64,000 bases of DNA from a virus. Positions 3,231-30,839 of this stretch are shown in pieces (position 1 is the first letter of the stretch; every line of letters begins with the position of its first letter). The translations under genes were made by a program, and so were the position numbers. Location of the stretch: positions 32,001-96,000 of the IMG/VR virus record IMGVR_UViG_3300046535_000406; one strand, written 5' to 3'. The notes below the pieces were generated by a model. The model had not been told where the DNA came from, did no database searches, and saw only the letters and a program-made list of their open reading frames with translations.

Positions 3231-5498
3231 TCAGGCGTTCATGCGGGAGGCGATGGACGCCTCCGCGCTGGCCGATGACTTGCTCGTCGCCGGAGCGCCA
3301 GCGGGGGTGCCCGTGTCCTTCGCCTCGCGAAGCGGGACATCCTCGTGGCCCATGCGCCGGTCGATGTCGCCTTCCATGGACTCGCGCAGGCTCTTGGGCT
3401 TGTCTGCCTCACCGGCAGCGCCCAGACCCCGGACGAGTGACGGACGCCGGATGCCGGTGGCCTCGGCGACCTTGCGGAAGCCCGCAATCTCGCGCTCGAC
3501 CTCGGTGCCCAGTGCGTCGTCGTCGGCGTAGCCGAAGCCTTCACCGACAGCCGACTCGCGGAAGCGATCGGCGATGTATTCCCGCGCCGGGCGCGGCAGG
3601 TCGCTCTCGGAGAGCATCGAGGTCACGAGCGCATTGGCCCGGCCCTTGGCCTCGACTGCGGCCTCCTTGACCTTCATCTCGGCAAGCTCGCGCTTCAGGG
3701 CGTCGAACTCCTCGCGAGAGGCGAACCCGGACTCGGCCACCTTGGCGTCTTCGGCCTTGGCCTCATCCTTGGGAGCAGCTGCGTCGTCGGCCTTCGCCTC
3801 GGTCTTCGCGGCTTCCTTGGGCTCACCCGCCTTGGGCTGCTCGTCTTCGTCGTCTGCCTCGCGGATGGCGAGATACAGGTCTGGCGCGGCCTCCCGCAGC
3901 TGCGCCGGTGTCATCTGCGCGATGTCGGCCATTTCCATCTCCTCGTAGTCGGCTTCAGCGAAGTCAATCGACCCGCCTGCACCTGCTTCGGTGACCCAGT
4001 CGATGCTGTTGATGTGCGCGATCGACTCCACGATCTGCGCGTCGCGGTTGCCCACTCGACCAGCGCGTGCCTTGCCCTTACCGAGCACGGAGAACGCCAC
4101 CTGATCGGGTGCGGCCTTCCACTTCGCGTAGACCCCGTCATCGATCACCTGAACACGGGAGCGCGGGACGCCACGGGTGTGGTCCCACTTCGTCTCCCGG
4201 ATGACGCCTACCCAGTCACGCACGTCACGCTCGGGGCGTTCGCCCTCCTCGCGACGGGTGGGATGGTTGGCGTACATCTTGCGTCCGTTGAACACGCCTG
4301 AGTCCACGGCCTCGCGGACGGAGTCCGTCGGGTAGTACCGCTTGTCACGCGAGTTGCCGAAGCCCGGTTTGATCGGGGTGATCCAGACCTCGTGCTTGGC
4401 GTCATCGAACTCGGCACCGGCCTCGGCCAGCGTCACGAGTGCATCGCCACCGCCGGACGACTCGTGGAAGCGCACGTCCTCGGGCTTTGACTCGGTGTCG
4501 GTGATGGAGAAGGACTCCTTCACCTGCGACACCGGCAGGTCGGGCTCCTTGCCCTCATCGTCGGCCCAGTTGGGGTCGTTCTTCATGTCGCAGGACGCCC
4601 CGGCCTTCATCAGGGCATCGTGGGCGCCTTGGATCATGCCCTGATCGGCTGCGCTGTTGCGCTTGCCGACCTCGGCCAGAGTCACGTCAACTGCCACGTC
4701 CATGGCCTCCTTCAGTCCCGTCAGGTAGCCACCACGGTCAGCGATTTCAGAGATGGCTTGCGCGTCGCCCTTGTCGGCGAGCATGAACAGAACGCTGTCG
4801 GACACGTGGTGGTAGGGATTGGAGTCGTCGCGAGACGACTGGGGACGCGAGTTGGTCAGGTCGCTGGCCTTGCCGCCGTACCGGGCGAACCGCTCCTCCG
4901 CCGACAGCATCTGCCCGGCGTCCTGCCCAGTGCTGGGCGGAATGTCACTGACGGGGACGGCGTCCTTGCGGCTGATCTTGAGTGCACCGATGTGCGCGAC
5001 CTCGTGGTAGCCGGGCGTGCCCTCTTTCGCGGCGGCCTTCGCTTCGAGCCCCGAGTAGAGCTTGCTCGCCGCCTCGGCGCGGTTCGCCATCGGACCGCCC
5101 GGGTGCCCGCCGGATGACGCTGAGCCGCCCTCCCAAGCGCCATAGAAGTGATCGCCCTCGTCCAGCGGCACCTCACTGGCCTCACGGAGGGTGCGATCCC
5201 ACTCGCCGGTGACCGCGTCGGCCTCACGGATGGAGTCCGGGTACTCGTCCGGGCTCTTGCCCCACTTCTTGTAGCCCTGCCGGAGCTTGGCTTTGACGGC
5301 CCCCATGGCCGCGTCGGGGATGTCGGCCTGCTGCCCTCGGAACCCGCCAGCTGAGAGTGCGGCAGCTGCGCCGGGGAGGTGGTCAGGATCAGGTGCGCCA
5401 GTCGCTGTGAGGTACGGCAGCTTCCACGTGGAGGGATCGGCTGACGGCGCGTAGGCGTAAGCCTTGCGCGGGAGCCCATCCTTCATCTGGTCGGCCAC
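3231..5498 (-). CDS. multi-domain prohead protease/scaffolding protein
   Basis: Likely start GTG 5498 after GGAGG (track start 5540). Protease core ITPIKPGFGNSRDKRYYP...KMYANHP...DVRDWVG...FSVLGKG...VESI...SIDWVTEAGAGG; acidic coiled-coil scaffold C-terminus; N-terminal accessory modules (YAYAP..PSTWKLP; KRNSAADQGMIQGAHD). Confidence 0.85.
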   Translation of the reverse strand: MADQMKDGLPRKAYAYAPSADPSTWKLPYLTATGAPDPDHLPGAAAALSAGGFRGQQADIPDAAMGAVKAKLRQGYKKWGKSPDEYPDSIREADAVTGEWDRTLREASEVPLDEGDHFYGAWEGGSASSGGHPGGPMANRAEAASKLYSGLEAKAAAKEGTPGYHEVAHIGALKISRKDAVPVSDIPPSTGQDAGQMLSAEERFARYGGKASDLTNSRPQSSRDDSNPYHHVSDSVLFMLADKGDAQAISEIADRGGYLTGLKEAMDVAVDVTLAEVGKRNSAADQGMIQGAHDALMKAGASCDMKNDPNWADDEGKEPDLPVSQVKESFSITDTESKPEDVRFHESSGGGDALVTLAEAGAEFDDAKHEVWITPIKPGFGNSRDKRYYPTDSVREAVDSGVFNGRKMYANHPTRREEGERPERDVRDWVGVIRETKWDHTRGVPRSRVQVIDDGVYAKWKAAPDQVAFSVLGKGKARAGRVGNRDAQIVESIAHINSIDWVTEAGAGGSIDFAEADYEEMEMADIAQMTPAQLREAAPDLYLAIREADDEDEQPKAGEPKEAAKTEAKADDAAAPKDEAKAEDAKVAESGFASREEFDALKRELAEMKVKEAAVEAKGRANALVTSMLSESDLPRPAREYIADRFRESAVGEGFGYADDDALGTEVEREIAGFRKVAEATGIRRPSLVRGLGAAGEADKPKSLRESMEGDIDRRMGHEDVPLREAKDTGTPAGAPATSKSSASAEASIASRMNA

Positions 5499-5592
5499 GG
5501 ACCGCCCTCCACAGGTGCACGCCTGAAACGGCGTCTGCAACGACTGGGAGGGGCCGGGCTTACGCCTTCGGCTGACCTACTTCCGGGATCGC

Positions 5593-8668: not shown

Positions 8669-11600
8669 TCACCAGCCGCTGGACGTGCTGTTCTGGACCA
8701 CCGGGCCGCTGTAGTTCTTGGTGTATTCCCACGGGTCCATGCCCGCCTTCCGGGCTTCGTTGTTCCACATGCTGCCGTCGTACTTGGACAGCCGGATGAT
8801 CTGGGGCAGCTGAAGGTCGCGGGCGATGATTTCGCGCTCGCCCTCGGTGGACTGGAACCAGCTGGGGTTGACGAAAGAGGTGGCGTAGAAGTTTTCGAGG
8901 TTCATCTTGGCCGTGATCATCACGCCCGCGTCCTGCACGAAGCCCGCGCTCAGGCCCAGCGAGCCGCCGCGACCTGACGGGTAGCCCAGCCTGCTGAGTC
9001 GTTCGTAGTACGCCTGCGCATCCGTCGTGTCGGCGACGTTGCGCACCCACAGCCACGTGCCGGTGGCCGGGTCGTAGGCGTTGCGAATGTCCTTGATCCA
9101 CTGGACGCTGCTGTTCTCGTAGCGCGGGTCGAAGGTGGCATGGAGCACGGCCCACTGGTTGATCTTGGAGGCGTAGGCGTAGGCATCGGCGTCCGTCTTG
9201 GAGGCGATGAGCCCGGCACCGTAGGTGCGAGCCGAACCCATCTTCTCGACCGTCTTCTCGCCCGACATGCCGCTGCCGGAGTAGCTATGCACGTATCCGA
9301 GGGCTTCCTGCATGGACGACTTGCTCGGGCGACCCGGCACGTCGGAACTCGGGTCCAGTAGTCGCCGCGCCTCCTTCAGGGGATCGGTGGTCGGCGACGG
9401 CAGCAGGTCGCGGTCCCACTCGGCCATCTTGTCGATGTGCTGCTCGTCGTACGTCAGTTGGAGCCGGAAGACGCCGCCGTCCTGAAGCAGCCAGTCACGC
9501 CACGACTGCGGCACATCGGCGCCCTTGGGACCGGCCATGGCAGCCTTGACTTCACTCGCGAAGAAGGTCTGGTAGTCGCCGCGCACTTGGTTCTTGCGCA
9601 GCAGCGCGGCCTCGCGGAAGGCGTCGTACGACTTCTGGCGCAGGCCCTTCCAGTCGTTCAGCACCGGCTGAATGATCTGTAGGAACTGCTGGTCCGACAT
9701 GGCTTCGAGGTGGCCCAGCGTGCGGGCGATGGCCTTGGGATCGACGTTCGCCAGCAGGGCCGGGTTCTTCCGGGCGTCGCGCCAGAACATGCTCCACATG
9801 GGCAGCAGGCCCATCTCGCCGCCCTGCCCCTCGTTGGCCGGGTCCAGCGTGTCGAACTTGCCGCCCATGCCCACCCAAGAGCGCGTCTTGTCGATGCCCC
9901 AGAGGTGGCCGTCGCTCTGGGACACCATCCAGTTGCCGATGTGGGCGTCGTCGTTGGCCGTCAGCCAGTCAAGGACCGACTGCTGGAAGAACTCGGTCGT
10001 CTGGTCTGGCGTCAGTTCGCCGGGGCTCTTTACGTGCTCGATGTCCGGCACGAGCTTCTGAAGCGCGCCGTTGGTCATCTTGCCGTTGATTTCGAGGGTG
10101 TATTGCTTCACCGGCGGCGTGCGCAGGTCGAGCAGCCCAGCCAGCTGGTTCACGGCCACGTCGGTGCGCGCTCCGCGACCAGAGGCACCGATCTTGAACA
10201 TCCACTCGTTGCCCTGCGAGTCAATGAAGGCGGCCTTGGGCGACTGGCCGCCGAGCCCCTTGGCGCTGAGCAGCTTCAGGTCCTGCGGCACCGGCCAGAT
10301 GGTTGGAGCCACGATCGGGGTCGCGACCGTCCCGGCGGCGGAGGACGCGCCCATCTCGGCTTCGATGTCCTGCCGCATCATGTTGGCCCGGTCGGCGGTC
10401 ACCCTGATCCATGCGCGGCTCGTGGTGGCCGCTTCGGCGCCCTTGTAGCGCAGCAGCAGGTCACGCAGAGCCGGGTTGGCGCTCAGCACCTGCTGGTCCA
10501 CTTCGAGCACGGTGCCGGGCGTGGCAGCGATGTTGGAGAGCAGCGAGTGGAGCATCCGGACGGTGGAGGCGGTGACCTCGGCCTCGGTCGTGCCGGAGGC
10601 GATCGTCAGGTTGGTCCATTCCATGATCGGCCCGGTGCGCAGCCACTCGGCTTCGACCTTGCCGCCCGCCCAGCTGGACACGGCTCGCAGGCCGTTGGCG
10701 CGGATCGTCTCGCCCCCGGCCAGCCACAGGTTGTCGGGGGTTCCGCCCATGATCTTGATGGGCTGGTTGGCGAGCACGCCCTTGGGCAGGTCCACCAGCT
10801 GGGGAGGCTTGGGGATCGCCGCGAGGACTTGCCCCTGAAGGAGCGGGTCTTCGGTGTTGGCGAGCAGCGCGTTGGCGAGCGTTTCAGCCTGCGGCCCTTC
10901 GAGCCTGACGCCGGGACCCAGTGCGTCGAAGAAGCCACCGCCCTGCCCCTCGGCAGGCCGGACCCTGAAGTCCGTGCCGCCCGCACGCAACAGCAGGTCC
11001 TTCATGCCCGGGTGCGCGTCGAGGACCGCGTCGATCACGTACAGGCGGGAGGCGGCCATCACGTTGCCGTCTTCGTCCACGCGCTGGGCCGTCTTCTGTG
11101 CGAGGTCCAGCAACTCGGACCACGTGGCGTCGTTGACTTCCTTCGCGGTGGCACCCAAGCTCTCGGCGCCGACCAAGCTCACCAGCGATCCCGTGGTGCT
11201 GACGGCGTACAGGGTCTTGACTTGGTTGCCGCCCGACACGGTGTACGTGGCTGTCTGGATCGTCTGTGGCAGCTTCGTCCCGGGCACGATCTGCTGGGGA
11301 CCCGGGAGCGCCGCCTCGGACGCACCGAGGTGGTGGGTCGCGATCATCTCGGAGTGGTCGTAGCCCAGCAGGGTGTCGAGCCGGGAGGACGCGGGGATCA
11401 GCGGACCCTGAGCTACCTGCGACAGGGACTGGGCGCTGACCGGCGGCACGTAGAGCGGGCTGTTGGGCGTGATCAGCTTGGCGTTCGGGACGTAGGGCAC
11501 GATCGGTGCCGCCTTCAGGGCGCCCGGCACCATGGTCACCGGCGTGCCGTCTTCGAGCTTCACGCTGACCGTGCTCATGGTCGTGGAGGTGACGGTGCCG

Positions 11601-14600
11601 TTGCCCTGCGGCGTGATCACCTTGTCGCCGAACTTCCACGGGTTCGGCGCGTACGGGCTGGCCTTCAGTTGGTCCAGCGTGGCCGTCTGGATGACGGATG
11701 AGCCCTTCATCGAGAGGGTCACATCGCCGACCGGGCTGATCGAGGTGATCATGGCGTTGACGCCATTGGGGAGCAGCGCGTAGTCGCCGACCTTCCACGG
11801 CTGGGGCAACTGCTTCAGCAGCAGCTGGTTGTACGTCTCGACCACCGGCGGCAGGCCCTCGGGTGCCACGTTGACGAGCAGCCCGGACGGAGAGGCGGCG
11901 TTGGTGACCACGCCCATCTGGCCCTTCGGCGTCATCACGAAGTCGCCGGTCTTCAGCGGATTGGCAGGCGGCTCGGGAGCCTTCAGGTCGGGGATCGCCG
12001 CGCTGGCCGGGTTGCCGCCCACGTCGAGCGTGATGGTGTCGGTGCTCACGTTGGTGACGGTGCCGACCTTGCCGCTGGGAAGCTGGCCGATGTCACCCGC
12101 CTTCCACAGCTTGGGGATCGGCTTGATGTCCTGCCCGACCAACGTCTGCGTGGTGCCGTCTTCGAGCGCCACGGTCACGGTGGCCGGGTTCACGGTGCTA
12201 TCGACCGACACGACCTCGGCGAGCCCGAAGCCGGAGGCGAACACCGGGTCGCCGGTTTCGAGGTTGCCGACGCCCTTCTGGACGATGGTGACCGAGGTCT
12301 TGCCCAGCTGCTGCACGTTGCCCGTGGTGTTGCCCGAGTAGAGGGCCTTCAGGTAGTAGCCGGTGTCGGGTATCTCGGTGACGACGTAGGGCTTGCCGCC
12401 GGTGTAGTAGACGACCGTGTCGCCCACGGCCACTTCGGATGCGGGCCACGTCTGGACGTAGGACAGCTGCGACATGGGGATGTTCGCGCCGGAGCCGTAG
12501 CTCTGGATGGTGACCTTCGCCTTGCCGTTCTTGAAGACCTTGACGATCTTGCCGTAGTTACCGTCCTGCTTCAGCACCCAGTCGCCCACGGCGAGCTTGT
12601 GGGCCGAGAGGGCCGCCTTGGACAGGGTGGGCGCAACGACCTTGGGCACGTTCACGCCGGTCGGCGTCAGGAAAGCTACGTTGGTCCACGACTTGGGATA
12701 CGTGTCCCAGTCCACCAGCACGGTGCTGCCGCTGGACACCTCGGTCACGGTGCCGGTGCCGAAGCTCGGGTGGGTGACCTGATCGCCGACCTTCAGCCCA
12801 GCCGGGGCCGTGCTCGCCTTCACGGTCGCGACTGTCCCCGGCTCGACCTTGGTCAGGGTCGAGATGCCGACCAGCTGCTTGCCGTTGGCCCCGAAGTCCA
12901 CCATCGCGGTCGGGCTGTAGGGGGTCTTCTCAATGACCGTGCCGGTGCCGTAGAGGGGCTGAGCCACGGTGTCCCCGGGCTTGGGGACGTACGTCTCACC
13001 GGCGGACGGCACGGGCTTGACGATGCTGGCGTAGGCGCTGCCGGGTCCACCCTTGGCGGTGCTGACCGTGCCGCTGCCCTCCCACTTCACCGTGACGGCG
13101 TTGTCGCTGACATTGGTGACAACGCCGCTGGTGCCGGTGGGGGTCCACTTCACCTTGTCGCCGACGACGAAGGTCGCAGGGACTGGCTCGGGCGCCACGA
13201 ACGGGGTCAGGTCGCTCTCCGCCTTCAGGAGCGGGTAGCCAGTCACGTCGGAGGTCACGATGACCATGCCGCTCGGCTGGTTCAGCTGGGTCACGGTCGC
13301 CGTGATGGGCTGGTTTCCGGCGTCAGTGAACGTCACCTTGTCGCCGATGGCGTACTTGGGCGCGGCGGCTGGCTTCAGGAGTTCCGTCTTCACGGTCAGG
13401 GTGCCCGTCCCGGAGCCCACTCCTGCTGTCCCGAGGGTCACGTTGGCCTTCGTGCCGTCGTCGGTCACGTAGGCGATCTTGCCGGTCTGGCCGGTCGGCA
13501 CGGTCACCCAGTCGCCTTGGTGAAAGCCCGGTTGGACCTTGACCAGCGTCAGGTCCTTCGTCTCCTGAGTGAGGTTCGCCGTCATGGTCGTGACATGGGC
13601 CGTCAGGCCGTCGGGAGAGAGGTAGTTCACGACGCCCTCGTCGCCGCCGTAGGTGAGCACGGAGTCGCCGACCTTGATCTGAGGCTTGGGCGTGAGCTTC
13701 GCTGGGTTGTAGATTTTCGATGACGGGGCGTTGGGCGACGTGAGCGGGTCGAACGACACCTCGACGGTGGCCGAGTTGACTTGGGCGATCGTGCCGATGC
13801 CGTAGTCGTTCGTCAGCACCTTGTCGCCGACGGCAAACTTGGGCGCAGGCGTGGTCGCCGTGATCCAGCCCTTGTTCACGCTCTCCGGGACCAGCACGAA
13901 TGGCGTGCCGTCCACGCCCATCGCCTGCACGTTGCCGGTCACCGGGAACAGCTTGGTGACGGTCAGGTTCTGGCCGCCATAGTTGACGTGTTCGCCGATG
14001 CGGAACGGCGCCGGGTTGGCGTTCTCCAACTCGCTCGGCTCGAACGTCACCTGTGTGGCGTGCTCGTCGTTCAGGATCACTTCGATGTCCAAGCCGTCAG
14101 GCGAGATGGCCGTGATCGTGCCCGTCTCGCCGTCGAAGGCGCCACCGATCGCCTTCACGGTGACCTTGCCACCGACCTTGGGACCGACAGCCGCCGACAA
14201 CTGGGAGGTTGGGAAGTAGCCCCATACGGGCTCGCCCGGGAACTCGACTCCCCACGTCATCTCGCCGTTCACGATCCCGTGGGTGCCCATGACGGTCCCT
14301 GTCTTGCCGTTCACGCTGACGGTGTCTCCGGCCTTGGGGGTAAGCGGGCTCGGGACAGCGGCAGGCGTCAATGTGCCTGCCTTGGCAGAGACGATCACCT
14401 CGTTCTGGGCGAAGGTCCCCGTACTCCCATCGAGCATGGTCACGTCCATCATCTGGCCGTTCAGTGACACGTAGTTCACGGTGCCCATCTGCCCGCCGTA
14501 CGTGGCGACATCGCCGGTGGCGTCGCCGCCGCCGGGCTTGACCACGATTTCGTCGCCCACCTTGGCGAGCACAGGCGGCGGAGCACCGACCAGCTTCAGG

Positions 14601-17600
14601 TTCACCTGCGGCGACTCAAGCCCCTGCGCTCCACCGAACCCCGGCCACTTCACATTGGCGGTCTTGGATACGTCGTTGATCGCCACGACCGTGCCGCCCT
14701 TGTATGCGGAGTTGCCGTTCATGTGGTCCACGATGTCGCCGACCTTCAGGCCAGCTGGCTCAGCCGGTTTCGCGAGCAGCATGTCCTTGCCGAAGAAGGG
14801 CAGGCCCGGCGCACCGGCAACGTGGTATTCGTCCACGCCGTCGATCGAGGCGATCACGTCCACCTTGCCGTTCGGGAGCACGACCTGATCGCCGATGCTG
14901 AAGGCCGCCTGCTTGGTGGGCTCGGCCACCTTCGTCACGCTGCCCGCCGGAACGATGTCGCCGGGCGCGAAGGTGTTGCCGATCGACAGCTGCACGTTGC
15001 CGTTGTCGAAGGTGTGCATGACCTTGGCGTACTTGCCGTCCGGCTTCAGCGCCCAGTCTCCGACCTTCAGGCCCTCGGGCGGGATCGGCGTGAAGGCCGG
15101 GACCACGCCCACCTTCACGGCGTGCTCGCCGTTCATGTCGGCCCAGAGATTGCCGTCTGAGTCCTTCACGTCGATCAGGCCGTTCGGCTTCACGGCCATG
15201 ACCTCGTACGTGGGCGGACCGGAGCCGACGAACTTCACCTTGTCGCCGACAGCCAGTGTCGTCGGCGGCGGCTCGATCACGCCCTTCGCGAAGGAGACGG
15301 CAGGCGCGACCTTCGAGAGGTTGGGGTTGGTGGCGGCCTTGTGCACGACCGCGCCGGACTGGGTCGTGATCGTAAGCTCGCCGGACTGGCTGATCTGGGT
15401 GACGGTGCCGGTCTGCATGGGCGTGCCCAAGCTCGGCTTCCCCCACTGCACCTGATCCCCGAGGTTGTAGCCGCCCGCCTTACTGCCCGGGAAGACGACG
15501 TTCGGGGTGGTCGCGGTGTAGGGCGTCACGTCCTCGGGCTTCAGCTTGAACGTCGTGCCGCTGACGGAGGTGACGCTCAGCTTCCCGTTGTGGTCCACGG
15601 AGGTCACGAAGCCGTTCAGCCCCTTGCCCCAGACGATGTGATCGCCTGCCGCGTAGCTGCTTGCGACGGTGGTGGCAGGGACCGGCTTGGGCGCTGACTG
15701 GATCGTCGGCGCGATGCCGGGCGCAGCCTTGGCTTTGACTTCGTCGGCCTTCAGGTCCTTCAGCAGGGCCTCGGCGTCGAGTCGGCCCATCTTGATGTCG
15801 CCCTTGGTGGCAGCGGTGCCGTAGGCCACCTCGAACAGGTTGCGCAGGTCGAGCGGCATCCCGCCCACGATCGACGCCCGGACGACGGTGTATTCGATGC
15901 CCGGCGTGGTTTCCATGGCCTCCGCCATGCGCTTCATGTGGGCCAGCAGCAGGGTGGGCGTGTAGTCGCCTTCGGCGCTTGACACCTCGATGCGCTGGCC
16001 GATCCGCCGCCACTGGACCTTCAGGGCCTGATTGCCGTCGCCGTAGATCGTCTCCTTCAGGGCCTTGTTGGCCGTGCCCGCGAGGTGCACCGGGTGGATC
16101 GTCTGCTCGATGTCAGGGATCGACGCCAGAGCGATCGCCTGCGGGTCGTAGCCCTCGATGGTGCCGAGTGTCGAGAACGTCGGAGCGACCGGCGGTGGGG
16201 CGACGGTCACGATGGTGGGCGCCTGCCCATCGGCCACCAGCTTGTCCCGGATGGCCTGCACGTCCTCCGGCTTGAACGCCATGTCGTTGGTCTTGGACAG
16301 CACGCCGCCGTACGCCTTCAGGGTGTCGCGCATCGACAGGCTGGTCGCGAGGAAGGCGTCGGAGTCAATGCGCAGCCGGTACAGGGAAGGCGTCTTGTCG
16401 AACAGGTCCGCCGCGTGCTGGATGAACGCGAACGCGACGTTGTCCGCGATGTGCTCGGATGGCGCGGTCAGCTTCAGAAGCTCCACCCGGTTGCCCAGTC
16501 GGCGGTAGTCGAGCGAGGAACCGCCGCCCCAGACGACGTGCTTGACGCTCGTGTTGGCACCCGACAGGTAGGCCGCCTTCTCGTTCGTCTCCACGCCCCA
16601 GTGCATGGCGAAGTTGTCCACCACGGCGGGGTCGTATCCGGGCACTGAGCCGAAGGCGAGCGTCACCGGGACAGCGTTGGTCGCGGCTCCCACCTCGGAG
16701 TCGAGGTCGGACACGATCTGGTCCACGTCGGACTTCAGCAGCTTCTGGCTCGGGTCCCAGCCAGCCTCCTCCAACCATGTGCGCACGGGACCCGGTTCGA
16801 GGATCGGCCCCTTCAGGTTCAGGTGAGTCAAGGACGGCGTCGCGTCCATGTAGTCGTTGAACTTCCGCATCTGGGCGGCGAACACACCCAGCTGGTCGCC
16901 GGTGGTCTGCCATAGCTCCAAGCGGTTGCCGATGCGCCGCCACTCCGCCGTGCCGCCGTCGATCGCGCCGGTGCCGTAGTGCGTCTGCTTCATGGTCGTG
17001 TTGGCGCCCGACAGGAGCGAGTGGCCGCTGACCGACTTCTCGTACTGGACGGTGTAGAGGGACGCCGTCAGGGGGTCGTACGCGCCGACGGTGACGGGAT
17101 TGGGCACTGCCAGCGTCGCGCCGGTCAGCACGCCCGTCTGGGGCGGCACAGGGAGCGCCTGTGGACTGGCGATGCCCGACGCCTGCTTGATGTCCTTGGC
17201 AAGCTGCTGGGCGTCTTCGTAGGGCAGGATGATGCGGGTCTGGGAGCCGCTGAGGTCCAGCGATCCGTTGTAGTGGTCGAGCAGCATGTTCTTCCAGTGC
17301 TCATCGATCACGGACAGCGCCTGATCCTCGTAGATGAGCTTCTGCCCGTAGCTCAGTGACTCACCGGCGTACTGGGTGACGACCATGAAGGTCGTGTTCT
17401 GCATGGCGATAGGCGAGGTCAGGTTCAGGATGCGCATCGGCTTGGTGGCGTTGGGCGGGTAGTCGAGCGTCCCGCCGATGTCGAACTTGCCCGCCTTCCA
17501 TGACAGGCTGAGCGCGCCACCTCCGAGGGCCAGCGTGTCTGGGATGGCTCCGATGGCGGCTGCCATCTGGGCGATGTCCTCGGTGGCCCAGCCTGCGAAG

Positions 17601-20600
17601 TCAATCGACCCGGCGACCTTGGTGCCACCGGCTGCCAGCGATCCGACGGTGATCAGCTGGGTGTCCGTGGAGAGTTTCGTCGCGAGGTCCGTGGCCTGCG
17701 CAGCCGTCAGCGTCAACCAGCCGTACTGGCTCTCGACCGCGCCCGCCTGCTTCATCAGGTCGCTCAGCGTGGGCATGGCGTTGAGGAACGAGGTGGGCAC
17801 GATCAGGTTCTTTGGCGCGATCTTCAGCGGGTCGAGCGGGAACGAGGCGATGCCGGACAGCGCGGCCAGATACGAGGCGTCGCTGCCCAGCGTCGTGCCG
17901 CCGATCGAGTAGAGGACCAGATCGCCTTGCAGGTTCTTCTTCATCGAGGCGTACAGGCCGCCGATCGCGCCGCCGACGGGCTTGACTTGGTACGCAGACT
18001 CACCCGTGGCGAGTTGGGTCTGCCAGCCCTTGTCGAACTCAGCCTTGCTGACGCCCAGCTTCTGGAACAGGCCGCCGACTGCCCCCGGCGGACGGGTCAT
18101 CTTCAGTGTCGCGGGGCTCGTCACGAGCGAAGTGCCGTCGGGGAGCTTCATCACGATCATCCCGCCGGACACGCCCTGCGGCGGAGTGATTTCGCTGACC
18201 ACGCCCGAGGAGCCTGACGGCGTCGTCACGTGGTCGCCGATCTTGAACGGATTGGTGGGTACGACAGGCGTCGGTGCGGCCCCGGCTGGCTTCACCAGCG
18301 CCCAGACAGGCCACTTGTCGATGTGGCCGTCGGCGTATTGGACGGTCGCGCCGTAGAAGTCGAGGCCAGTGATCGACTTGATTTCGACCTTGGTGCCGCT
18401 CGGCAGCAGGGCCGTGTCACCCACGTTCCACGTCAGGAACGGGTGCAGGTTCTTGGCGCTCACGTCCTGCGCGGTCGCGCCGTCGAGCTTGGTGACCGCG
18501 TACGTGCCGTTCGGGTGGATGGCAGAGATGATGCCGTCTTGGCCGTCGAGCGAGGACACGCCGGTGCCAGAGATGTGGACCTTGCCGTCGATCCGCAATG
18601 GCGGGCCGTGCTGGACCATCACCACCTTGGCGTCGCCGATCCCATAGGCCGTGGTCGAGCCCCCGGTATCGACCGCGATGGTCAGGATGCCGTTCGGCGC
18701 GATCTGGGTGACCGTGCCGGTCAGGCCCTCGATTTCGACCTTGGCCCCCACGGTGATGCCCGCAGGCACCCCGCCGGGAGCCATGACGCCGGGCGCCGTA
18801 CCCGGAGCGGGCGCCAACTCCTCGGCCTTGAACGAGACATAGGGAGCGCCGGGCAGCGCCACGTCGTAATACGTCTCGCCGGACGAGAGCAGCCCCACGT
18901 GGGTGATCGAGCCGACCTGCCCGCTGAACGCAGCGCCCTTGGTGACCAGCACCGCATCGCCGACCTTGAACGGCTCGGTAGTCGCTGCCGGGACCCGCGC
19001 CAGTTCCGTCGGTGCGACGGGGAAGGCGTTGGCCGCAGCGCCCTTGACGGTGATCAGGCCGCTGGGCGAGACTGCTTGGATGGTCACCTGCTCCGGGTGG
19101 GCGAAGCCGGGTGGCTGCCAGAGAGCCTGATCGCCGACCTTCCACGGCTCGGCAGCAGTCGTCACGGCACCCGTGCCCGGCGTAAGGCCCGGGTACTTGC
19201 CGAGCTTCAGGTCCTTCTGAACCTCGGAGACGGGGCTGGTGAACTTCGCGCCGCCCGTGACGGCGATGACTTGGTTCGCGTCGATGGTCTGGACGATCGC
19301 TCCGTGTTGGAGCTTGTCGCCGACCTTCACCACGTTGTCCGGGTTAGCCCACGCCCAAGCCTCGCTGCCGACAGCCTTGACCTGTATCTGGACCGGCGTG
19401 ATCCCGGTGTCGATCTTGGTGATCGTGGCGTGGCCCAGCGTCGGGTGGATGACCGCGTCGCCCACCTGCGGAGCCACCGAGGACAACTCGCCGACGGTGA
19501 AGCTCTTGTAGGCGCCGGACGGCAGGGTCACCTCGATCACGTCACCGGGCAGGACCTTGTTGACCTTGCCCACGCCGAACGCGGTCTTCACCACGTCGCC
19601 CTGCACGAAGGTGGTGACGGCGGCCACGGGGGTGGCTGTTCCGACCGCCCACGCCGGGCTGCTGAAGCCGGGTTTCACGAGCGACGACACGGCCATCCAC
19701 GTGGTCGAGCCATCCGGAAGCTCCACGAGCGCGAGTGTCCCGACCGGGTCGATGGTCTGAACGGTGACCATCTGGCCCTTGCCGCTGATCTGCTCGATGA
19801 CCGTGTCGCCGACCTTCAGCGGCGGCTGGGTCACGCCGACATCCGGTACGTGCTTCAGGCCAACGGTGGTCGGGTCGATCAGCAGCCCCGCTCCCGCTCC
19901 GGGCGAGATGTCCCACGTGATGCCGACCTTGCCGTCCGCCACGTTCGTGATCGTGCCGGTGGCGTCCCACATATTCGCGACGTGATCCCCGACCTTGAAC
20001 GTGGCCGACGGCTCGACGTGCTTCAGCATGACGTTCGGGTGCGTGGGATCGAAGGCGGTGCTCGTGATGCCGCTGTCCCACGTGACGGTCACCTTGCCTG
20101 CGTCTGGGAACACGGCAGCGATCACGCCCTTGGTGCCAGAGAGGCCGCCGGACTGGACCTTGTCGCCGACGCGGAAGCCAGCAGCAGAGGGAGCCGCAGG
20201 CGCAGTAGGCGCACCGAGCGACCCGGTCTTGGTGAGGGGAACGCCGAGCGTCGTCGCGTTGGGGTCCACGTGGATGGAGGGTGAGGTTCCAGTGGCCCAG
20301 TGCACGTCGATGAAGCCATCGGCATGGACGAACGTCACCGCGCCCTTCACGCCTGCGCCGTTGACGAGCGTGTCGCCGACCTCCCACGCGGGCTGCGACC
20401 CGATGAACGTCAGGTTCGCGTTCCATGGCTCGGTCGCGAACAGCTTGCCATCGGCGGTGGTCTTCAGGAACAGGATGTCCGGCTCGATCTTGGTGATCGA
20501 GCCCTCGTTGCCGAGATAGTTGACGAGGTCGCCGATCTGCCATTGGTGGGCCAGCGACAGGTCGGCGATCGAGAAGGTCTGCTCCCCGAAGCCGATCTTC

Positions 20601-23600
20601 ACGAGGGCCTTCTGCCCATCGGCGCTGATCGAGGCGATCAGGGCGGGCTTGTTGTCGAGGGTGTGCACCATGTCGCCGGGCTTCAGCGACGTGATCGCCT
20701 TCACGATCGGCTTCAGCTGGTCCGCGAGGAAGTAGCTCGTCACGCTCGGGAACTTCACGTAGAACGTGCCGCCCGCCACGGCATCGATCACCGTGCCGAT
20801 CCCATAGGTCGCGTGGAGCACGGTGTCGCCGATCGCGAACGCTGCCGGGGCGACCGAGGCGACCGCCGCCACGTCGGTCAGGTCGTTCAGCAGCGAATGG
20901 ACGAGGCCGATGGTGTTGGGGCGGCTGAGTATCCAGCCACCGAGCACGCTCGACGGCTTCAGCCCGGCAGCCGTGAGCATCTGCTTGGTCTTGTCGCCCA
21001 GCACGTTCATAACCGCGTCATCGATGCGGACCGCGAGGTGGTTGACCCCGTACAGGGCGGGGTTCTGCATCACGCCCGCGAAGTATTGGAGTTGCCCCAC
21101 CAGCGCCGCCGCCACGTCAGGCTCGCTTACGTTCTCGCCGGTGATCACTTGGTTCAGCCGGAGGTTGCCGTTGGGCGACGTGTCCCAGTAGAACTCCACG
21201 TCGCCGCCCTTGCTGGTCGTCCACACCTGCTTCTGCGGGTGCGACTTCAGGTCAGGGCCGTCAGGCGTCGGGATGCCGGTCCCGGTGCCGTTGACGAAGT
21301 TGTACGCCTCGTGCTGGTCGAAGCCCCACTTCTCGCCGATGCCCGTGGTGCCTTGGGCCGACAGCTTGTTCGGCGTGGCCGTGACCACGTGGCCCAGCGT
21401 CTGATCGAGCGACTTGGCCTGCGCAGCAGGGTGCATGGCAGCCGTGGTGATCCCGGGTGGCGGCAGCAGTGACGTGATCGAGACGTTCTGGTCGGTGGCC
21501 TTCCGGAGCAGCTGAAGCTGCGGAGCGTCAAGCCGCCACGAGCCACCCTCGCTCTTGCTGCCGAGCACGGTGAACAGGTCCGCCAGCTTGGCCGTCTCGG
21601 TGGTGGAGACGGTGACTTCGACCTCCATGCCCTTGTCGGCCTGTCGCAGGATTTCCTTCAGCAGGATCGCCCGGCGCGTCTCGATGCCGGTGACCTTCCA
21701 CTCGGGCACGCCCATGCGGACGAAGCTGCTGGCCGCGTTCGGGTAGAACAGGTTGATGGGCTGATCGGTGGTGCCGATCTTCCAGTGCACGCTGCTCAGG
21801 ACTTCGTCCGGTGCCTTGCCTTCGCTGACGAACAGCGAGGTGTCCCATGCGGGCTTGGCGACGCCGTACGTCTCGAAGAACGGGTCCGCCGGAGCCTCCA
21901 CGCCATGGGTGGCGAAGTGCGTTGGCGTGTTCGTGCCGACGATCTGTCCCACGGCGATGGTCGGGTCAGCCGGTCCCAGCTTGGCCGCGAGGGTGTCAGT
22001 GACAGCCGGTGTCAGTGTCAGTGTCGGGGCGTCAGCCGACAGGGCGGTGGGATCGGCCATGATCTTGGCGACCTTCACCGCATCGCCGTTGCCGATCAGC
22101 AGGGTCTTGCCGAAGCCGGGCACCTCGCCCGGGATGCCCAGCAGGGCGAAGTCAGCCTTGCCGAAGCCCATGGAGCCCTCGATCGAGAGGTCCCAGCCCT
22201 TGGGCAGGTTGGTCACCATGGCGAGCATCGCGTTGGCCCGAAGCTGGGCCATGGCCGGATCAGCCGCCGCCACCAGCACGCCGCTGTCGTTCTTGAACGC
22301 CGTCAGCACCCAGCGACGTGTCTTGGCCGCTTCGTCGTCGCGGAAGAACACCGAGGACGTGCCATCTGGTCCGCCCGGAAGCTCGACCTTCATCAGCCCG
22401 GTCGGCATCGAGGTGGGCGTCCAGACGCCAGCCGATGCCTCAGCGATCTGGGGGTCGTACCCCAGTTGCTCGTGGAGGAACGGCGATCCGCCACTCACGT
22501 CATCGGGGGACATGCCCAGCAGGCGGGCAGGCGGCTCGGTGATCGGAGGCGCGACCGGCGGCAGGCCAGCCTGTTCGAGGTAGGAGTCGAGCACCTTGGT
22601 GTCGCGGGAGTCGGGCTTGTCGTAGCGCAGCAGGACCGGGCGCACCTCGGACGGAGTGCCCAGTCTTACGCTGTACGTCTCCTTGATCGTCTTGGCCCAC
22701 GCCGGACCGCCGCCTGTCCGGTGGGCCACGTAGTAGCGGGTGATCGAGCCGTTGTCGGTGGCGGTGAAGTCACCGAGGTACTTGTCAAGCTCCACGCTGA
22801 AGCCCATTTCCTCACGGGCCTCGCGCACGGCAGCCTGCGCGGTCGTCTCGTTCAGGTCCACGCCGCCCTTGGCGAAGGTGTTCTCGTAGCCCGCCCAGCG
22901 GTTGCGCGGGGAGATGATCCACATGCGGCCATCGGGCTCGACCAGCACCACGCCTGCACGGAGGCTGTGTGTGCCCTTCTTTGCCACGTCGTAGGCGTCG
23001 ATCGTGTCCAGCTGCTTCTGGCTGTAGCCCAGCGTGTCCTTCCAGAACGCATCGCTGTTGGTGTCGAGCCCACCCTTGACGGCCTTGTCCAGCGCATCGA
23101 GGTCGGCCTTGGACTTGGCCGCGTAATACTGGCTGCCGATCTTCTGCTCGAACAGGCCAGCCTTCTTTGCGGCGTCCGACTCGGCTTGGCTCCACGTGAT
23201 CGCGTACTTGGCCTCGCCCGACTGGACGGCCTCCCAGCGCAGCCACGCCTTGTCGGCGGCCTCGCGCATGTCCTTCAGCTGCCAGTCCGCCACGGCGCCT
23301 TCAGGCAGCGGAGGCTCCTCGGGCACATGGCCGGTCCAGTCAACCGGCGGCGTGTTCAGCGGAGCGATCCCTTCGACGGGGATGGGCTCCACCGTGGTGC
23401 CGGGTTCGAGCACCGGCGCCTTCTCATCGATCTTGAACGTCAGCCCGTCGAACGGCGTGTCAGGCTTTGGCGGGGCCGTGAACGACTTGAACGGGACGCC
23501 CGTGTATTGGTAGCCCGGCACGACCCCGGTGTCCGGCACGAGGTCTACGACCGAGACGTTCTCGGCCAGCCCAAGCTCCTTGCCGTCGGTGACGCGCACG

Positions 23601-26600
23601 ATCCGCCAGCGCAGGTTGCGCGGCAACTGGACCTGATAGGTGGCCTCGCCTGCGCTGAGCCGGAAGCCCTTGGGCACGTGCATTCGCTGGACCACCCCGC
23701 CGGGGATCGCGAAGTTGTACGCCTTGTTGCCGCTGCTCGTGGCGAACGGGATGGCCTTGTCCACGTAGCTGTCGCCGACCTTGCCCAGCGCGCCCGCCTT
23801 CAGGCTCTGGCCTCGGTACAGGATGCCCGGGGCCGTCGTCTCGGCTTGGGTGGACAGGCGGTCGTAGTAGTCGAGCAGGTCCTTGCCCTTGACCATGGTT
23901 CCATCGACCGACTGGTCGGCGACGTGCTCCCCTGCGCGAAGGGACTTGTTGATGGCGCCCGTGTCCACCGCGTTCCACTCGGCGGCGTCCGCGATGGGCT
24001 TCAGGTTCGGTTCCAGCCACCACTCGTCCTTCGGGTTCAGCAGCTGGGTGACGATGCCAGCCGAGCCCTCCGGCGCAAACTCGGCGGCGGTGGGCGCTGG
24101 CGGCAGTGGCACTTCTGGCTTGGACCACTGCGGCGTGAGCTTCTTGTCCCAGAGCGTCGCCGCAGCCGGTAGCACCTCGGTGGGCGCCTCGAACGTGCTG
24201 CCCTTGATGAGCCACACCTGCCAGTCGGTGGGCACGACGGACACGTCCTTCTTCCACAGCGTCGCCATGTTCCGGATCAGCTTGGTGGCGCCTTCGCGCT
24301 CAGCCTCGGGCAGAGCGAGCACGGCGTCGCGCACCGCCTGCGGCGTGTTGTTCTTGAAGAAGCCGGTGTCCTTGGGCTTCATCACGTCCGTCAGGTTCAC
24401 GCTCGGCAGGTCCTGCGGAGAGAAGCCCAGCAGCGGATCGGCTGGCTTGGCCGGGTAGAACTTGTCGAAGATCGCGGCCAGCTGCTTCGTCTCGGGCTGG
24501 TTCATCCCCTCGATGGCGCCCGCGAACGTCTCGGCCCATAGCTCGTGCTGGTTCGAGCGGGCGTACTTCGAGATGTGCGTCGTCTTCAGGGCAGGCCAGA
24601 GGGTTGACTTCAGCCACGGCTCCAACTCCTGCCGCACCGGCGCGTAGCGATCCGCGCCCAGCCGCGAGTGGAGGTTCATGCCCAGCCATTCGTGGCCCAT
24701 CTCGTGGGTCACCACGTCGGAGGCCCACTCGTCGGCGTTGGTCGCGATCTGGCCGCCGACGCTGAACGGGACGTTGGCCTTGTCCCGCAGGAACGCCTTC
24801 TGCAAGGCCGTCGAGTCGGTGAACATGGCGCGGTTCAGGAACACCTTGGAGCCGGGCACGTTGGGGTCGATGCGGGCCACTTCGGCGATCGTGCCCTTGC
24901 CCGGCGCGTAGGTGCGCAGCGCGACGCCACGGAAGCTGGGGATCGTGCCGAAGCGGCTGAACAGCATGTCCATGCGCTTCGCCAGCACCTTGCCGGTGTC
25001 AAACGGCACTTCGAGCAGGCCGCTCCAATCCGTGCCCGGGTAGCGGGCCTCCATGCGCGCCACAAGCTCGGACACGTTGGTGACCTCGGACACGGTCGCG
25101 CCCAGATCAGCCGGTGGCGTGTACGGGAAGGTGCCGCCGTCATCGAGCCACGCCTTCCACGCTGCGCTCGGGTGGTCGGCGATGGTGGTGCGATCTGCGA
25201 ACAGGTCCTCGACCGATTGACGCAGGTTGTGCTTGCGGCTCAGCAGGTCGGCCTTGGCGGCGTCCGTGGTGAGCGCGTCACCGACGGCGTTCAGCAACTG
25301 CTGGTCGGTGACGCCATCGAAGCGATCGAGCGTGGTCGCCACGTCCTGTGGGGTGAGGCGCAGCAGCAGGTCCGGGGAGTGGTCGATCCTGCCGAACATC
25401 GACGCATCAGCCCGCTCATAGAAGTCCGTCAGGGATGGCGTCAGGCCGGAGCCCAGCCGGTCGAAGCCGTAGCCCTTGTCGATCGCCCACACGCGCCCGG
25501 AGTCGTAGAGGTAGTTCCCGCCGTGGCCGTCGGCGTTGTGGATCAGGTAGTCAACGAGCCCGTGGCCGAACAGCTGCCGTTCCTCGTCGTGGCCCAGCAC
25601 CCGGGCCAGCGTGGCGGCGTCGGGCGCTCGGACCCAGTAGCTCTGGGCGGTGCGAGGCACGAGTGCCTGCCACGCATACCACGGGTTGTCGCCGGTGCCG
25701 AACGCGATCCGCGCAACCGGCGGAGCATCGAGGCCAAACAGGGTGGTGACGCGGGAGCCTGCGACTTCCTCCGAGACGCCGTAGGGCTTCAGCAGGAACT
25801 CCTGCCCGGTCGGGTCCTTCAGCAGGACACGCGGCGTGGTGCCCTTGCCCAGCTTGTCCGCGCTGCCCCACTTCCAGCCGGGCAGCAGGCCGCCGGTGCC
25901 CCACTTGCTCGGGTCAACGAGCACCTGCTCGGTCGGGAAGGCGCCGAACTTGGTGACCGGGAACGTAATCTCGGGCGTGTGCCACACACCCCCTTCGCGC
26001 ATCAGCGACCACGCCTCGGTGTCACCGGCCAGCGTGCCGGGAATGTAGTCGGGCCGGGTCATGGCGGTGAACGCCTCGGCCCAGAACTCCTCGTCCGAGG
26101 TGTCGGCGTAGGACTTCAGCTTCAGCAGGTTGTCGCCCCGGAAGTCAGCCTTGAACGTGTTCCAGCGATCAGCGCCCAGTCGCTGAGAGAGGCGGTTCGA
26201 CACGAGGTGGCCGTACTCGTGAGCCCATGCGTCGCCGAAGGTGTTCGAGACGGTGATCTTCCCGGCCAGCCCCATCTCGGGTTCGAGGTTGATGCGCCCG
26301 TCGCTGAAGGCTCGGCCCGCGTAGCCCACGCCGTCGCTTGACTCGATCACGGACAGCGCGCTGTTCAGGGAGCGGTCGATGCCCAGCTGGTCGAATAGCT
26401 CGGCCTTGGCTCGCAGCATGTCCCACTGGGCAGACGAGAACGCCTCGCCCGCGAGGTTCTTCATGCCCGGGAACAGGGCCATGGCGTCGGCCATGGGGTG
26501 CTCCGGCGACGGCTCGAAGGCGGTCTGGACGATGGCGTTGGCGTTGCTGACGTGCGGCTCCGCCGCAAGGGCGCGGAAGCTGGGCATCTCCGGCATCTCG

Positions 26601-28780: not shown

Positions 28781-30839
28781 ACGTCGCCTCGGCAGCATCT
28801 GCGGCCTGCCGTGCAATCTCTACCAGACGGTGGACGCGGACCCGCTCGTCCGGCGGAGCCCACGACTCCTGAATGGGAGGCGCGGTGTCCTGCTTGACTC
28901 CGGCCTTCTGTGCCGCCGTCGGCATCATGCCCGGCACCGGCGAGAGCTTCGTCGGGAAGCCGCCCTGAGCCGCCAGTGGCGTCAACAGCGACTGCGGGTC
29001 GATCGGCTGTGGGCCGGTGGCGCCCTTCATCATGCCCTCGGGCAGCGGCGGGAACAGGCGGTCCATCAGCTGGTCCACGTCCTCGATTTCGAGCGCGACC
29101 ATGGCGATGGACAGGACCCACTTGCCAGCCTCGGGGTTCTGAAGCGGCAGCATGTCGTAGAGCGCCTTCAGGGCCGTGAAGTAGGCCGCAAGGTCCTTCT
29201 TGATGATCGGCGGGAAGACGACGCTCACGTACCAGTCGATCGGCTTGCTCGGCCCCGGGTCTTGGTCCGACAGGGCCGTGAAGACCATCGGCTGGACGGC
29301 AGGCGGCGGCGGCGGCACGAACGGCTGGGGCGGGCCACCCGGCGCGGCGGGGTCGGCAGGCTTGGACGGATCGGCAGTCGCCTTGGCAGGGTCGGCGCCG
29401 TTCACCTTGGCGCTGTCGCCCTTCACGTGAATGTTGATGTCGCCCTCGTGCAGTTGCACCGGCGAGCCTGCGCGACCGGCAGGCGGTCCACCTGCGCCGA
29501 CGGGTGCCGTGGTCGGACCCGGGTTCAGCTGAGGCGGTCCAGCTGGCTGTGCGGACGAGGTGTCAAGCACCTGCTGCGCCGTCATCGACCGCTCGCTGTA
29601 TTTCGTGGAGTCGTCGCGTGGGCCGAGCTTGCCAGCGTCGTGAGCCGTCTCCAACGCGAAGGTGACGATGTCCGACATGATGTCGCCCAGCCACTTCTGC
29701 CACGACTCGTACATCTTCAGGAGCGGAAGCTCCATGGCGGTCGCGGTCGCGAGGTTGGCGTTGGCCTCGTCGCCGAAGTAGTGGTTCGGGATGCCGCCCA
29801 TGCCCGAGCCGCCCATCATGCGGAGGATGCGCTCGTCGGCCAGCGCGTTCGTGCCGCCGGTGTCGTTCTTCATCCATTCGAGGGACGAGTAGTCGTTCTC
29901 CACGATGGTCGAGCCCGGCGCCGGAGCAGGGTTGGTGTCGTAGCCGGTGGCGCTCACCTGCATTGACGACTGAAGCCGGGCGACCTCGGCGGCCACATCC
30001 TGAGCCGTGCTGTTCTTGCGCTTCTTCTTCCACGCGAACGTGGCAGCTGCGTCAGTGATCGTGGAGCGGTTCTCCATGAACCGCTTGTGCGCGTTGACCC
30101 AGTCGAGCGCGGCCTCTATCTCGGACTCGCCCATCTTCGACTTGCCACGGCGGCAGAGCATGACCAGCCCGTCCTCGACCGCCTTGGGCGCGGTCTGGCC
30201 CTTGGGGTCCAGAGGAGCGTCGTTGCGCCACTCGCGATACCAGATGAAGTCGTCTGCCGTGGTGGCGGAGTAGGAGCCAACGTTGAAGTCGTAGCTGCCG
30301 CCCAGCTTGCGCACCTTCACCCAGAGCGGGATGCGCCAGTTCTCGGGATCGGTGACCACGTCCTCGATCAGCAGCGAGTCGATCGAGCCAAGCTCGACCT
30401 TGCCTTCATCGGTGTCGGGGAACATGACCAGCACTTGCAGGCCGTCGGTGAAGGCACCCTTCAGGAAGTCGGACTGGGCCATGTAGCCGAAGAACGTCTG
30501 CTGGTTCACCGGGTTCTGGACAAGCTCGTCAACGATCTTCGCGACACGGGTCTTGTTGGCGGCGGAGAGAGTCACGCCGCGCCCGATGGTGTAGTTCACG
30601 AGCAGGTTGGACGCCTGCTTCACGAGCGGGCTGCGCCGGGCTGCGCGTCGCGCACGGCGGATCGTCGTGATCCGCTCGTCTCGGGTCAGGTACGTCTCGT
30701 CGCCGGAACGGTCGTACGAGAGGTTCGTCCAGTTGGCGTCTTCGAGAGCGCGCTCGACCGTCAACAGGGCTTCGCGAATGCTGACCGGCTTGGGTCCAGC
30801 GAAGGCGGGAGCGCCGTTCGGCTGCACGGTGAGTCCCAT
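28764..30839 (-). CDS. portal protein
   Basis: Likely ATG 30839 (MGLTVQ). SPLVKQASNLLVNYTIGRGV, DPEN, G.SEI...DW, GGIPNHYFGDEANANLATATAMELPLLKMYESWQ and FPPI are typical portal motifs; Pro-rich insert near C-terminus; precedes MuF. Confidence 0.88.
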   Translation of the reverse strand: MGLTVQPNGAPAFAGPKPVSIREALLTVERALEDANWTNLSYDRSGDETYLTRDERITTIRRARRAARRSPLVKQASNLLVNYTIGRGVTLSAANKTRVAKIVDELVQNPVNQQTFFGYMAQSDFLKGAFTDGLQVLVMFPDTDEGKVELGSIDSLLIEDVVTDPENWRIPLWVKVRKLGGSYDFNVGSYSATTADDFIWYREWRNDAPLDPKGQTAPKAVEDGLVMLCRRGKSKMGESEIEAALDWVNAHKRFMENRSTITDAAATFAWKKKRKNSTAQDVAAEVARLQSSMQVSATGYDTNPAPAPGSTIVENDYSSLEWMKNDTGGTNALADERILRMMGGSGMGGIPNHYFGDEANANLATATAMELPLLKMYESWQKWLGDIMSDIVTFALETAHDAGKLGPRDDSTKYSERSMTAQQVLDTSSAQPAGPPQLNPGPTTAPVGAGGPPAGRAGSPVQLHEGDINIHVKGDSAKVNGADPAKATADPSKPADPAAPGGPPQPFVPPPPPAVQPMVFTALSDQDPGPSKPIDWYVSVVFPPIIKKDLAAYFTALKALYDMLPLQNPEAGKWVLSIAMVALEIEDVDQLMDRLFPPLPEGMMKGATGPQPIDPQSLLTPLAAQGGFPTKLSPVPGMMPTAAQKAGVKQDTAPPIQESWAPPDERVRVHRLVEIARQAADAAEATYGRGD

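Follow-up and report, generated by a model that had tools for sequence, protein, structure and literature searches.

Forty SH3-like mini-barrels, nearly free of arginine, in two arrays of a giant head-module protein of an uncultured phage

The stretch of DNA analysed here (the window) comprises 64,000 nucleotides (nt), bases 32001-96000 of the linear 109.5-kb IMG/VR virus record IMGVR_UViG_3300046535_000406, which comes from an uncultured phage and has an estimated completeness of ~87% (CheckV). Among its head genes lies an open reading frame (ORF) for a giant protein with a mass of roughly 720 kDa, in which a sequence-only reading of the window had noticed about 40 small, diverged beta-barrels in two arrays. 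The giant is recorded in the protein collection as 6,703 residues, which places its start at nt 28780. We regard the ORF as a real coding gene because a ~50%-identical ortholog of 5,452 residues (P0002, from a Logan assembly) has the same architecture. The gene and its two arrays are located as follows:

8669-28780, minus strand: giant ORF, 6,703 residues from the recorded start; the frame is open to 28816 (6,715 codons)
18092-20845, minus strand, residues 2658-3575: array 1, 16 SH3-like units
11486-15658, minus strand, residues 4387-5777: array 2, 24 SH3-like units

The units were called with a hidden Markov model (HMM) that was seeded on the G-D motif and iterated within the giant until convergence. 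The iterated model converges on 40 units, which together make up 34% of the protein, and a 41st match at residue 2234 looks spurious. This count agrees with the 16 and 24 units of the sequence-only reading, whose coordinates proved correct within ~35 nt. Cross-validation between the arrays served as a test that avoids circularity: an HMM built from array 1 only recovers 16 of the 24 units of array 2, and one built from array 2 only recovers 14 of the 16 units of array 1. No match to either single-array HMM was found elsewhere in the giant, in its reversed sequence or in 20 whole-protein shuffles, while the shuffled-array controls produced 1 and 5 matches in 40 shuffles. In the whole 109.5-kb record, all 40 unit matches fall inside the giant ORF. 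Aligning the repeats and building a profile, which had been proposed as a check, thus gave for each array a profile that, within the protein and the record, picks out only the other array.

The units are 45-77 residues long (mean 58) and share 17-41% identity with the reference unit. Their consensus reads x-x-[FWL]-K-V-G-D-x-V-...-G-x-x-G-x-V-x-x-[VI]-...-G-...-V-...-G-...-[LV]-K-...-P, and the tails and linkers between units consist of 20% Pro and 17% Ala, in keeping with the earlier description of highly diverged units with a G-D/hairpin pattern and Pro/Ala linkers. That description had also noted no tandem periodicity at the DNA level, and Tandem Repeats Finder detected none at 150-200 nt in the array DNA, only trivial 6-15-nt repeats, a result which rules out recent DNA-level tandem duplication. 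No recent duplicates were found among the array units.

An AlphaFold2 model of a single unit (residues 5406-5458), computed with the alignment of the 40 paralogs, reached a predicted local distance difference test (pLDDT) score of 85.5. It shows strands at positions 8-11, 16-22, 27-32, 38-42 and 46-49, with a 3-10 turn at 43-45 before the last strand. Foldseek against the PDB returned PWWP, PHF19/PHF1, SMN and SPF30 Tudor, Agenet, and Spt5 and NusG KOW domains with template modelling (TM) scores of 0.76-0.84, the top match being a PWWP domain bound to single-stranded DNA. A VIA search gave Z scores of 8-9 (up to 9.0) for the Hpy99I N-terminal domain, Spt5 and NusG KOW, the PHF19 Tudor domain and PWWP, and of 7.2 for the PcrA Tudor domain. 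In the model the unit is a five-stranded SH3-like small beta-barrel, an assignment that is certain for the fold and not for the family, and the structural matches from both searches form a continuum across families. The SH3-like barrels of the sequence-only reading are therefore supported, and a beta-solenoid or fibre, which had been set beforehand as the refuting outcome, is contradicted by the unit model and the fold matches.

The same reading had pointed to NusG KOW, CarD-RID and the PcrA/UvrD Tudor domains as objects of comparison. The structural similarity holds, as the Z score for PcrA illustrates, whereas all sequence matches stay below threshold. As a single stretch, each unit scores below the Pfam gathering cut-offs; the sub-threshold matches belong without exception to SH3-fold families (YajC, CarD_TRCF_RID, PcrA_UvrD_tudor, MSSS, SH3_15, KOW), and a profile search of PDB sequences returned weak matches to Spt5 and NusG KOW, CarD and L24. 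KOW (PF00467) does not reach its gathering score, matches one unit of the 40 (E 0.005) and is not listed for array segments scanned at E 0.01 or below; read by eye, the unit hairpin from G-D to G-x-V is ~4 residues shorter than in Escherichia coli NusG. CarD_TRCF_RID (PF02559) has a summed score over array 2 of 24.3 bits against a cut-off of 23, with no single stretch passing; it matches four of the 40 units at E 0.004 or weaker and appears in the precomputed Pfam list for the giant. PcrA_UvrD_tudor (PF21196) matches three of 40 (best E 2.4e-4). At E up to 1, 25 families were listed for the 40 units; SH3_2 and SH3_15 occur weakly among them, and no SH3b family is present. We also looked for the aromatic cage of Tudor domains (three to five conserved aromatics) and did not find it: aromatic or hydrophobic residues predominate at alignment position 3 only (21/39 units), and in no other column do aromatic residues exceed 10 of 40 units. 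A methyl-lysine or Tudor-type methyl-mark reader is ruled out by this lack of a cage.

Conservation is concentrated in G6 (40/40), D7 (36/40), V9, G14, G17, V/I19, V/I22, G26, V30, G36 and L/V46; in addition, the terminal Pro is conserved (36/36), and a hydrophobic or aromatic residue is kept three positions before G-D. The conserved positions belong to turns and core, variability is greatest on the surface of the strands (entropy up to ~3.5 bits), and no surface position was found to be conserved across the 40 units. With regard to composition, Arg accounts for 5 of the 2,309 array residues (0.2%) as against 4.3% of the remaining 4,406 residues, and Lys for 6.2% as against 4.5% elsewhere in the giant. 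GC content is 65-68% throughout the window and unchanged across the arrays, and since the genome has 67% GC, the loss of Arg is not mutational. With a net charge of about -1 per unit and an isoelectric point of 5.3-5.5, the arrays are mildly acidic, which rules out a basic DNA-condensing protein; they contain no Cys and 6.3% aromatic residues.

To find relatives, the unit profile was scored against 1.84 billion representative proteins, which gave 692 matches at E 0.001 or below, headed by the ortholog P0002. Next come stramenopile proteins with 10-20 Tudor/Agenet domains (Phytophthora, Lagenidium, Tribonema), the oomycete Tudor arrays being the strongest non-orthologous matches. In several further proteins, of prokaryote or phage type, the units accompany toxin-type or enzymatic domains. 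P0150 runs from Phage_Mu_F through 4-5 units to ADPrib_exo_Tox, P0008 from a weak Phage_Mu_F through ADPrib_exo_Tox to 8-9 units, and P0023 from 16 units to ADPrib_exo_Tox; P0102 combines units with an ADP-ribosyltransferase (ART) and P0126 with a NUDIX domain. The ARTs of P0008, P0150 and P0023 carry R...STS...ExE, which we take to be the signature of the arginine-specific type. The profile also catches unrelated beta repeats, its match in P0026 being an atypical-Rib surface-protein array. A stricter per-unit recount left no true SH3-type match above ~20 units, so that the 40 of the giant are the largest number visible to the profile. When proteins of similar length were searched for word-based homologs of array 2, nothing but the giant itself was recovered, and tblastn of GenBank phages with the giant N-terminus and with 8 units gave no match.

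The shortage of Arg in the units recurs in the ortholog and in these smaller proteins:

P0002 (ortholog): 0.2% Arg in the units, 5.1% in the rest
P0008: 0 of 411 unit residues, 5.1% in the rest
P0150: 0 of 266 unit residues, 4.3% in the rest
P0023: 0 of 801 unit residues, 2.1% in the rest
P0102: 0.6% in the units, 2.6% in the rest

The oomycete Tudor arrays, recovered with the same profile, contain 4-14% Arg, and because they keep it, neither the fold nor the profile alone explains its loss.

Outside the arrays, the giant is made up of the following blocks, given from the N-terminus:

27302-27454, minus strand: MuF-like end motif W-x-T-x-x-D...C-D-D-C...P-G-S-G-H-T-x-C-G-x-N-C-K-C, motif level only
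25877-27256, minus strand: zincin-like block with HEYGH (residue ~866); weak anthrax-LF-type (ATLF) match, E 0.004-0.008, below cut-off
25037-25876, minus strand, residues ~981-1260: paralogous HipA_C/PI3-PI4-kinase-like copy; the two copies cross-match in the ortholog
23417-25036, minus strand, residues 1261-1800: second HExxH block and ART-like block, motif level or sub-threshold
22736-22966, minus strand, residues ~1951-2027: NUDIX domain, 41.7 bits against a cut-off of 21.1
15659-18091, minus strand, residues 3576-4386: inter-array block, no known family
8672-10276, minus strand: C-terminal block with HipA_C/PI3-PI4-kinase-like region, E 4e-4, below cut-off

NUDIX is the only non-repeat domain of the giant above a curated threshold; the two zincin-like, two HipA/PI3K-like and single ART-like blocks are candidates at the sub-threshold or motif level. 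Of the two HExxH sites, one has the weak ATLF match and the other a weak Peptidase_Mx match, and the ART-like region (residues ~1612-1744) is recognisable at the motif level only (BLASTP E 0.07; small ART HMM E 2.2). The giant nevertheless has what defines a polyvalent protein, namely several biochemically unrelated effector domains on one polypeptide in a head-module context. Searches with the NUDIX block recovered only unrelated NUDIX genes without repeats, and the C-terminal ~270 residues have no family match. The two HipA_C/PI3-PI4-kinase-like regions are similar to each other (~26% identity across the two orthologs), and one of them also weakly matches the SCO1664 family. Within the inter-array block we observed three repeats of ~150 residues (residues 3896-4362; 15731-17131, minus strand) with the pattern G-Y-D-P ... 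W-R-R-I-G-x-R-[LIV]-E, for which there was no match in Pfam or NCBIfam and no usable match in the ESM Atlas; the block as a whole gave no match when searched against viral and genome contigs.

In the ortholog both arrays lie between the same flanking blocks and comprise ~5 and ~15 units as compared with 16 and 24. Accordingly, 67% and 44% of the array residues have no counterpart there, against 0-12% for most other blocks, the exceptions being the second zincin (65%) and the ART-like block (81%). The flanking enzyme blocks are 53-67% identical to those of the ortholog, and most units are matched in the ortholog no more closely than by their nearest paralog (~30-40% across part of the unit). 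P0002 is without the second zincin and the ART-like block, and as these two blocks are 65-81% gapped in the ortholog, the giant gains and loses whole effector modules. Judged from its sequence, the giant is a modular and polymorphic protein.

The genes that define the surroundings of the giant are the following:

55011-56666, minus strand: terminase large subunit
28764-31001, minus strand: portal gene (phrog_10963, E 2e-34), directly upstream of the giant and overlapping its start
3231-5540, minus strand: protease-like gene (phrog_15531, E 6e-4)
763-1755, minus strand: major head protein (phrog_133 and phrog_4523, E ~1e-51), downstream of the giant

The head module thus runs on one strand from the portal through the giant and the protease-like gene to the major head protein, with small ORFs between the giant and the protease-like gene. 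Between the terminase and portal regions lie a phosphoheptose-isomerase/polynucleotide-kinase-like gene (38554-39729, minus strand) and a DNA methyltransferase gene (45004-46206, minus strand).

The sequence-only reading had called this protein a MuF giant. Its gene immediately follows the portal gene within the head module, as is the case for MuF and SPP1 gp7, and it carries the MuF-like end motif. The HMMs lend the label no support, since residues 1-520 and 1-700 gave no match to a MuF domain (including PF04233) in Pfam, PHROGs or NCBIfam even at E 0.5. BLASTP likewise revealed no MuF homology beyond the terminal motif, and when hhalign was used to compare the N-terminus with the MuF domains of P0150 and P0008, only the terminal NC[KR]C stretch aligned, with a probability of 18%. 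As far as the sequence goes, the label is thus founded only on gene position and one motif. In P0002, a ~275-residue insert (residues ~479-754, corresponding to window position ~27340) sits inside the MuF-like motif, between G-H-T and C-G-x-x-C-x-C, and is not present in the window copy; it starts with C-L-V-P-G, ends with V-V-V-S-N followed by Cys, and looks like an intein. A separate gene for 645 residues (43640-45577, minus strand), whose C-terminal part matches the head morphogenesis family phrog_7625 (E 3e-16), may encode a second MuF-type protein of the phage, which bears on the nature of the N-terminus of the giant.

What could forty such barrels do? Arg, Tyr and Trp are usually enriched at binding hot spots. 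The near-absence of Arg from the arrays is the opposite of this composition and suggests a physical constraint that acts on the arrays as a whole, not a multitude of specific interfaces. The same constraint is suggested by the conservation of the fold only, the Pro/Ala connectors, the variable copy number at fixed positions, the mild acidity and the Arg avoidance shared with related arrays. The head-gene context, together with the NUDIX, zincin and kinase-like blocks, is in keeping with the injected polyvalent proteins described by Iyer et al., 2017 (PMC5512222). The reading we favour, with slightly less than even confidence, is that the arrays are bland, non-sticky, threadable spacers in a polyvalent effector that is packaged in the capsid and injected. 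According to this proposal, the giant would be built into the phage head beside the portal and delivered to the host together with the DNA, and its 16 and 24 mini-barrels would fold independently of each other on short Pro/Ala-rich connectors. The arrays would then be neither enzymes nor a specific ligand-binding device; they would separate three blocks of effector domains, and their chemical blandness (nearly Arg-free, Cys-free, slightly acidic) would probably let the huge polypeptide lie among the packed DNA without sticking, which may be why Arg is avoided. The beads may pass the narrow portal and tail channel one by one, or after easy unfolding followed by fast refolding; capsid cargo proteins are thought to unfold partly for tail passage (PMC10172136). 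Of the functions raised in the sequence-only reading, threadable, easily handled beads are hence the one we favour, whereas the avidity scaffold and the decoy fare worse, given that we see no conserved surface, no cage, an acidic and Arg-poor composition and a variable copy number.

Several observations weigh against the spacer proposal. Gene order is the sole basis for placing the giant in the capsid and for its ejection, and the MuF homology is unconfirmed by any HMM. An eight-unit stretch folded without an alignment reached a pLDDT of only 48.5, which leaves the independence of the beads unsupported. In P0008 the array is C-terminal, behind the toxin domain, so that it is not simply a spacer between an anchor and a payload. 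A conserved scaffold with variable surfaces is equally expected of a library of diversified binders. Lastly, units B01, B03 and B18 are 46-50% identical to their positional partners in the ortholog, nearly the level of the enzyme domains, and by this comparison some units may be under more than fold-level constraint.

A bolder version of the favoured proposal, which we consider possible but unlikely, treats the Arg-free arrays of SH3-like beads as a module dedicated to phage-injected proteins that has so far gone unrecognised and whose sequence has been shaped by delivery. In one form of it, the beads would unfold easily and slide, without sticking, past both the packed DNA and the acidic lumen of the tail, and fast refolding in the cytoplasm would act as a ratchet that pulls in the enzyme blocks. 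In another, lack of Arg would let the beads stay unmodified beside co-packaged arginine-specific ADP-ribosyltransferases.

A host-directed function would make the arrays a multivalent scaffold or decoy, in which many weak CarD-RID-, PcrA-Tudor- or NusG-KOW-like copies rely on avidity to hold a single abundant host factor (RNA polymerase, ribosome or nucleic acid). The consistent sub-threshold matches to CarD_TRCF_RID, PcrA_UvrD_tudor, KOW, YajC and MSSS, the presence of PF02559 in the precomputed list, the Z scores of 8-9 for NusG and Spt5 KOW and 7.2 for PcrA Tudor, and the PWWP domain with single-stranded DNA at the top of the Foldseek matches are in line with such a role. We nonetheless think it unlikely, as the 40 units have no surface position conserved among them, acidic and nearly Arg-free arrays are unlike nucleic-acid binders, the copy number is halved in the ortholog, and every unit, taken as a single stretch, stays below the Pfam gathering scores.

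If instead every barrel were directed at a separate target, such as a particular host defence protein, the arrays would be a library of diversified binders fused in one injected polypeptide. Variable surfaces on a conserved scaffold, the gain and loss of units between orthologs and the few units kept at 46-50% identity would all be accounted for. However, interfaces that diversify freely in a 67%-GC genome should sample Arg, which is near-absent in the 40 units and the related arrays, and this, together with the low aromatic content (6.3%), makes a binder library rather improbable in our view.

The giant could also remain in the head as an internal structure, i.e., a portal-anchored axial core, a ruler, or an inner-body-like spool that organises the DNA or sets the head dimensions. 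Its position after the portal in the head module and a bland surface suited to DNA contact are compatible with this, as is a folded contour of ~45-85 nm per array (an estimate at ~3 nm per barrel), on the order of a capsid diameter. Yet NUDIX, zincin, kinase and ART-like blocks in the same polypeptide make sense only inside a host cell, and a two- to three-fold difference in array length between orthologs is ill-suited to a ruler; we judge a non-ejected structure to be distinctly improbable. The least credible option by far is that the barrels are SH3b-like modules which bind the cell wall or peptides and anchor the effectors in the envelope as the phage enters: bacterial tandem SH3/chromo-like domains, which occur fused to zincin peptidases, have been suggested as binders of peptidoglycan peptides (PMC5906684), but no SH3b family is among those listed for the units at E up to 1, the best structural matches are KOW and Tudor domains, and the gene belongs to the head module, not to tail or lysis genes, with no signal peptide context.

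The giant resembles several known systems in part. Like the polyvalent proteins (Iyer et al., 2017, PMC5512222), it is a huge polypeptide encoded among virion genes, with unrelated enzymatic domains, and presumed to be injected with the DNA, but those proteins have 2-15 domains whereas here 40 mini-barrels alone make up about a third of the chain. With the MuF polymorphic toxins (Jamet et al., 2017, PMC5576092) it shares the position of a head-module protein after the portal, and the MuF-type P0150 and P0008 join the same Arg-free SH3-like units to toxin-type domains; in contrast to these toxins, the N-terminus of the giant remains below the MuF HMM thresholds, the protein is 5-6 times larger, and it has two arrays and ten times the units. 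The barrels of NusG/Spt5 KOW and of Tudor-type domains (PHF19, SMN, PcrA/UvrD C-terminal, CarD/Mfd RID) have the same five strands (Z 7-9, root-mean-square deviation 0.8-2.6 Å) and the G-D-x-V...G-x-G-x-V hairpin signature, but the units of the giant match no HMM of these families at threshold, have no cage and no conserved binding surface, and contain almost no Arg; moreover, KOW/Tudor-type proteins carry one to seven copies and the giant forty. Head-to-tail arrays of the SH3 fold are known from bacterial tandem SH3/chromo-like proteins (2-14 copies, PMC5906684) and from the oomycete Tudor arrays (Phytophthora P0011, P0013, P0017). The former are secreted, and the latter are eukaryotic proteins of nuclear type with strong Tudor/Agenet HMM matches and normal or high Arg, which sets both apart from the giant. 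Finally, capsid cargo and ejection proteins (crAss001 cargo, T7 gp14-16, P22 E-proteins, T4 Alt) are stored in the head and extruded via portal and tail (PMC10172136), as the giant would be, judging from its genes alone, but are mostly alpha-helical and not repeated mini-barrels.

The full texts of PMC5512222 and PMC5576092 mention neither SH3 nor KOW nor Tudor and describe no such repeats, the longest tandem in the survey of bacterial SH3/chromo-like domains has 14 copies, the proteins there being secreted (PMC5906684), and the profile search reached ~20. It was thus fair of the sequence-only reading to regard an array of this size as undescribed. The fold and the protein class are known; what is new is the array as a component of a head-module polyvalent protein, its size and its Arg-free signature.

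How phages transfer very large proteins from the capsid to the cell is poorly understood, and the giant is an extreme case. Its Arg avoidance, shared with the smaller MuF/ART proteins, is a clear and testable sequence signature. Should the arrays prove to be a module for delivery or spacing, their presence would flag injected cargo proteins in metagenomes, and they could be a possible design element for phage-mediated protein delivery in the laboratory; a dedicated delivery module, if true, would explain how polypeptides of thousands of residues pass the tail. Should they bind host factors instead, the phage would possess, in its forty diversified barrels, an anti-host binding array of unusual size. 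In both cases, an undescribed non-enzymatic component is added to the concept of the polyvalent protein.

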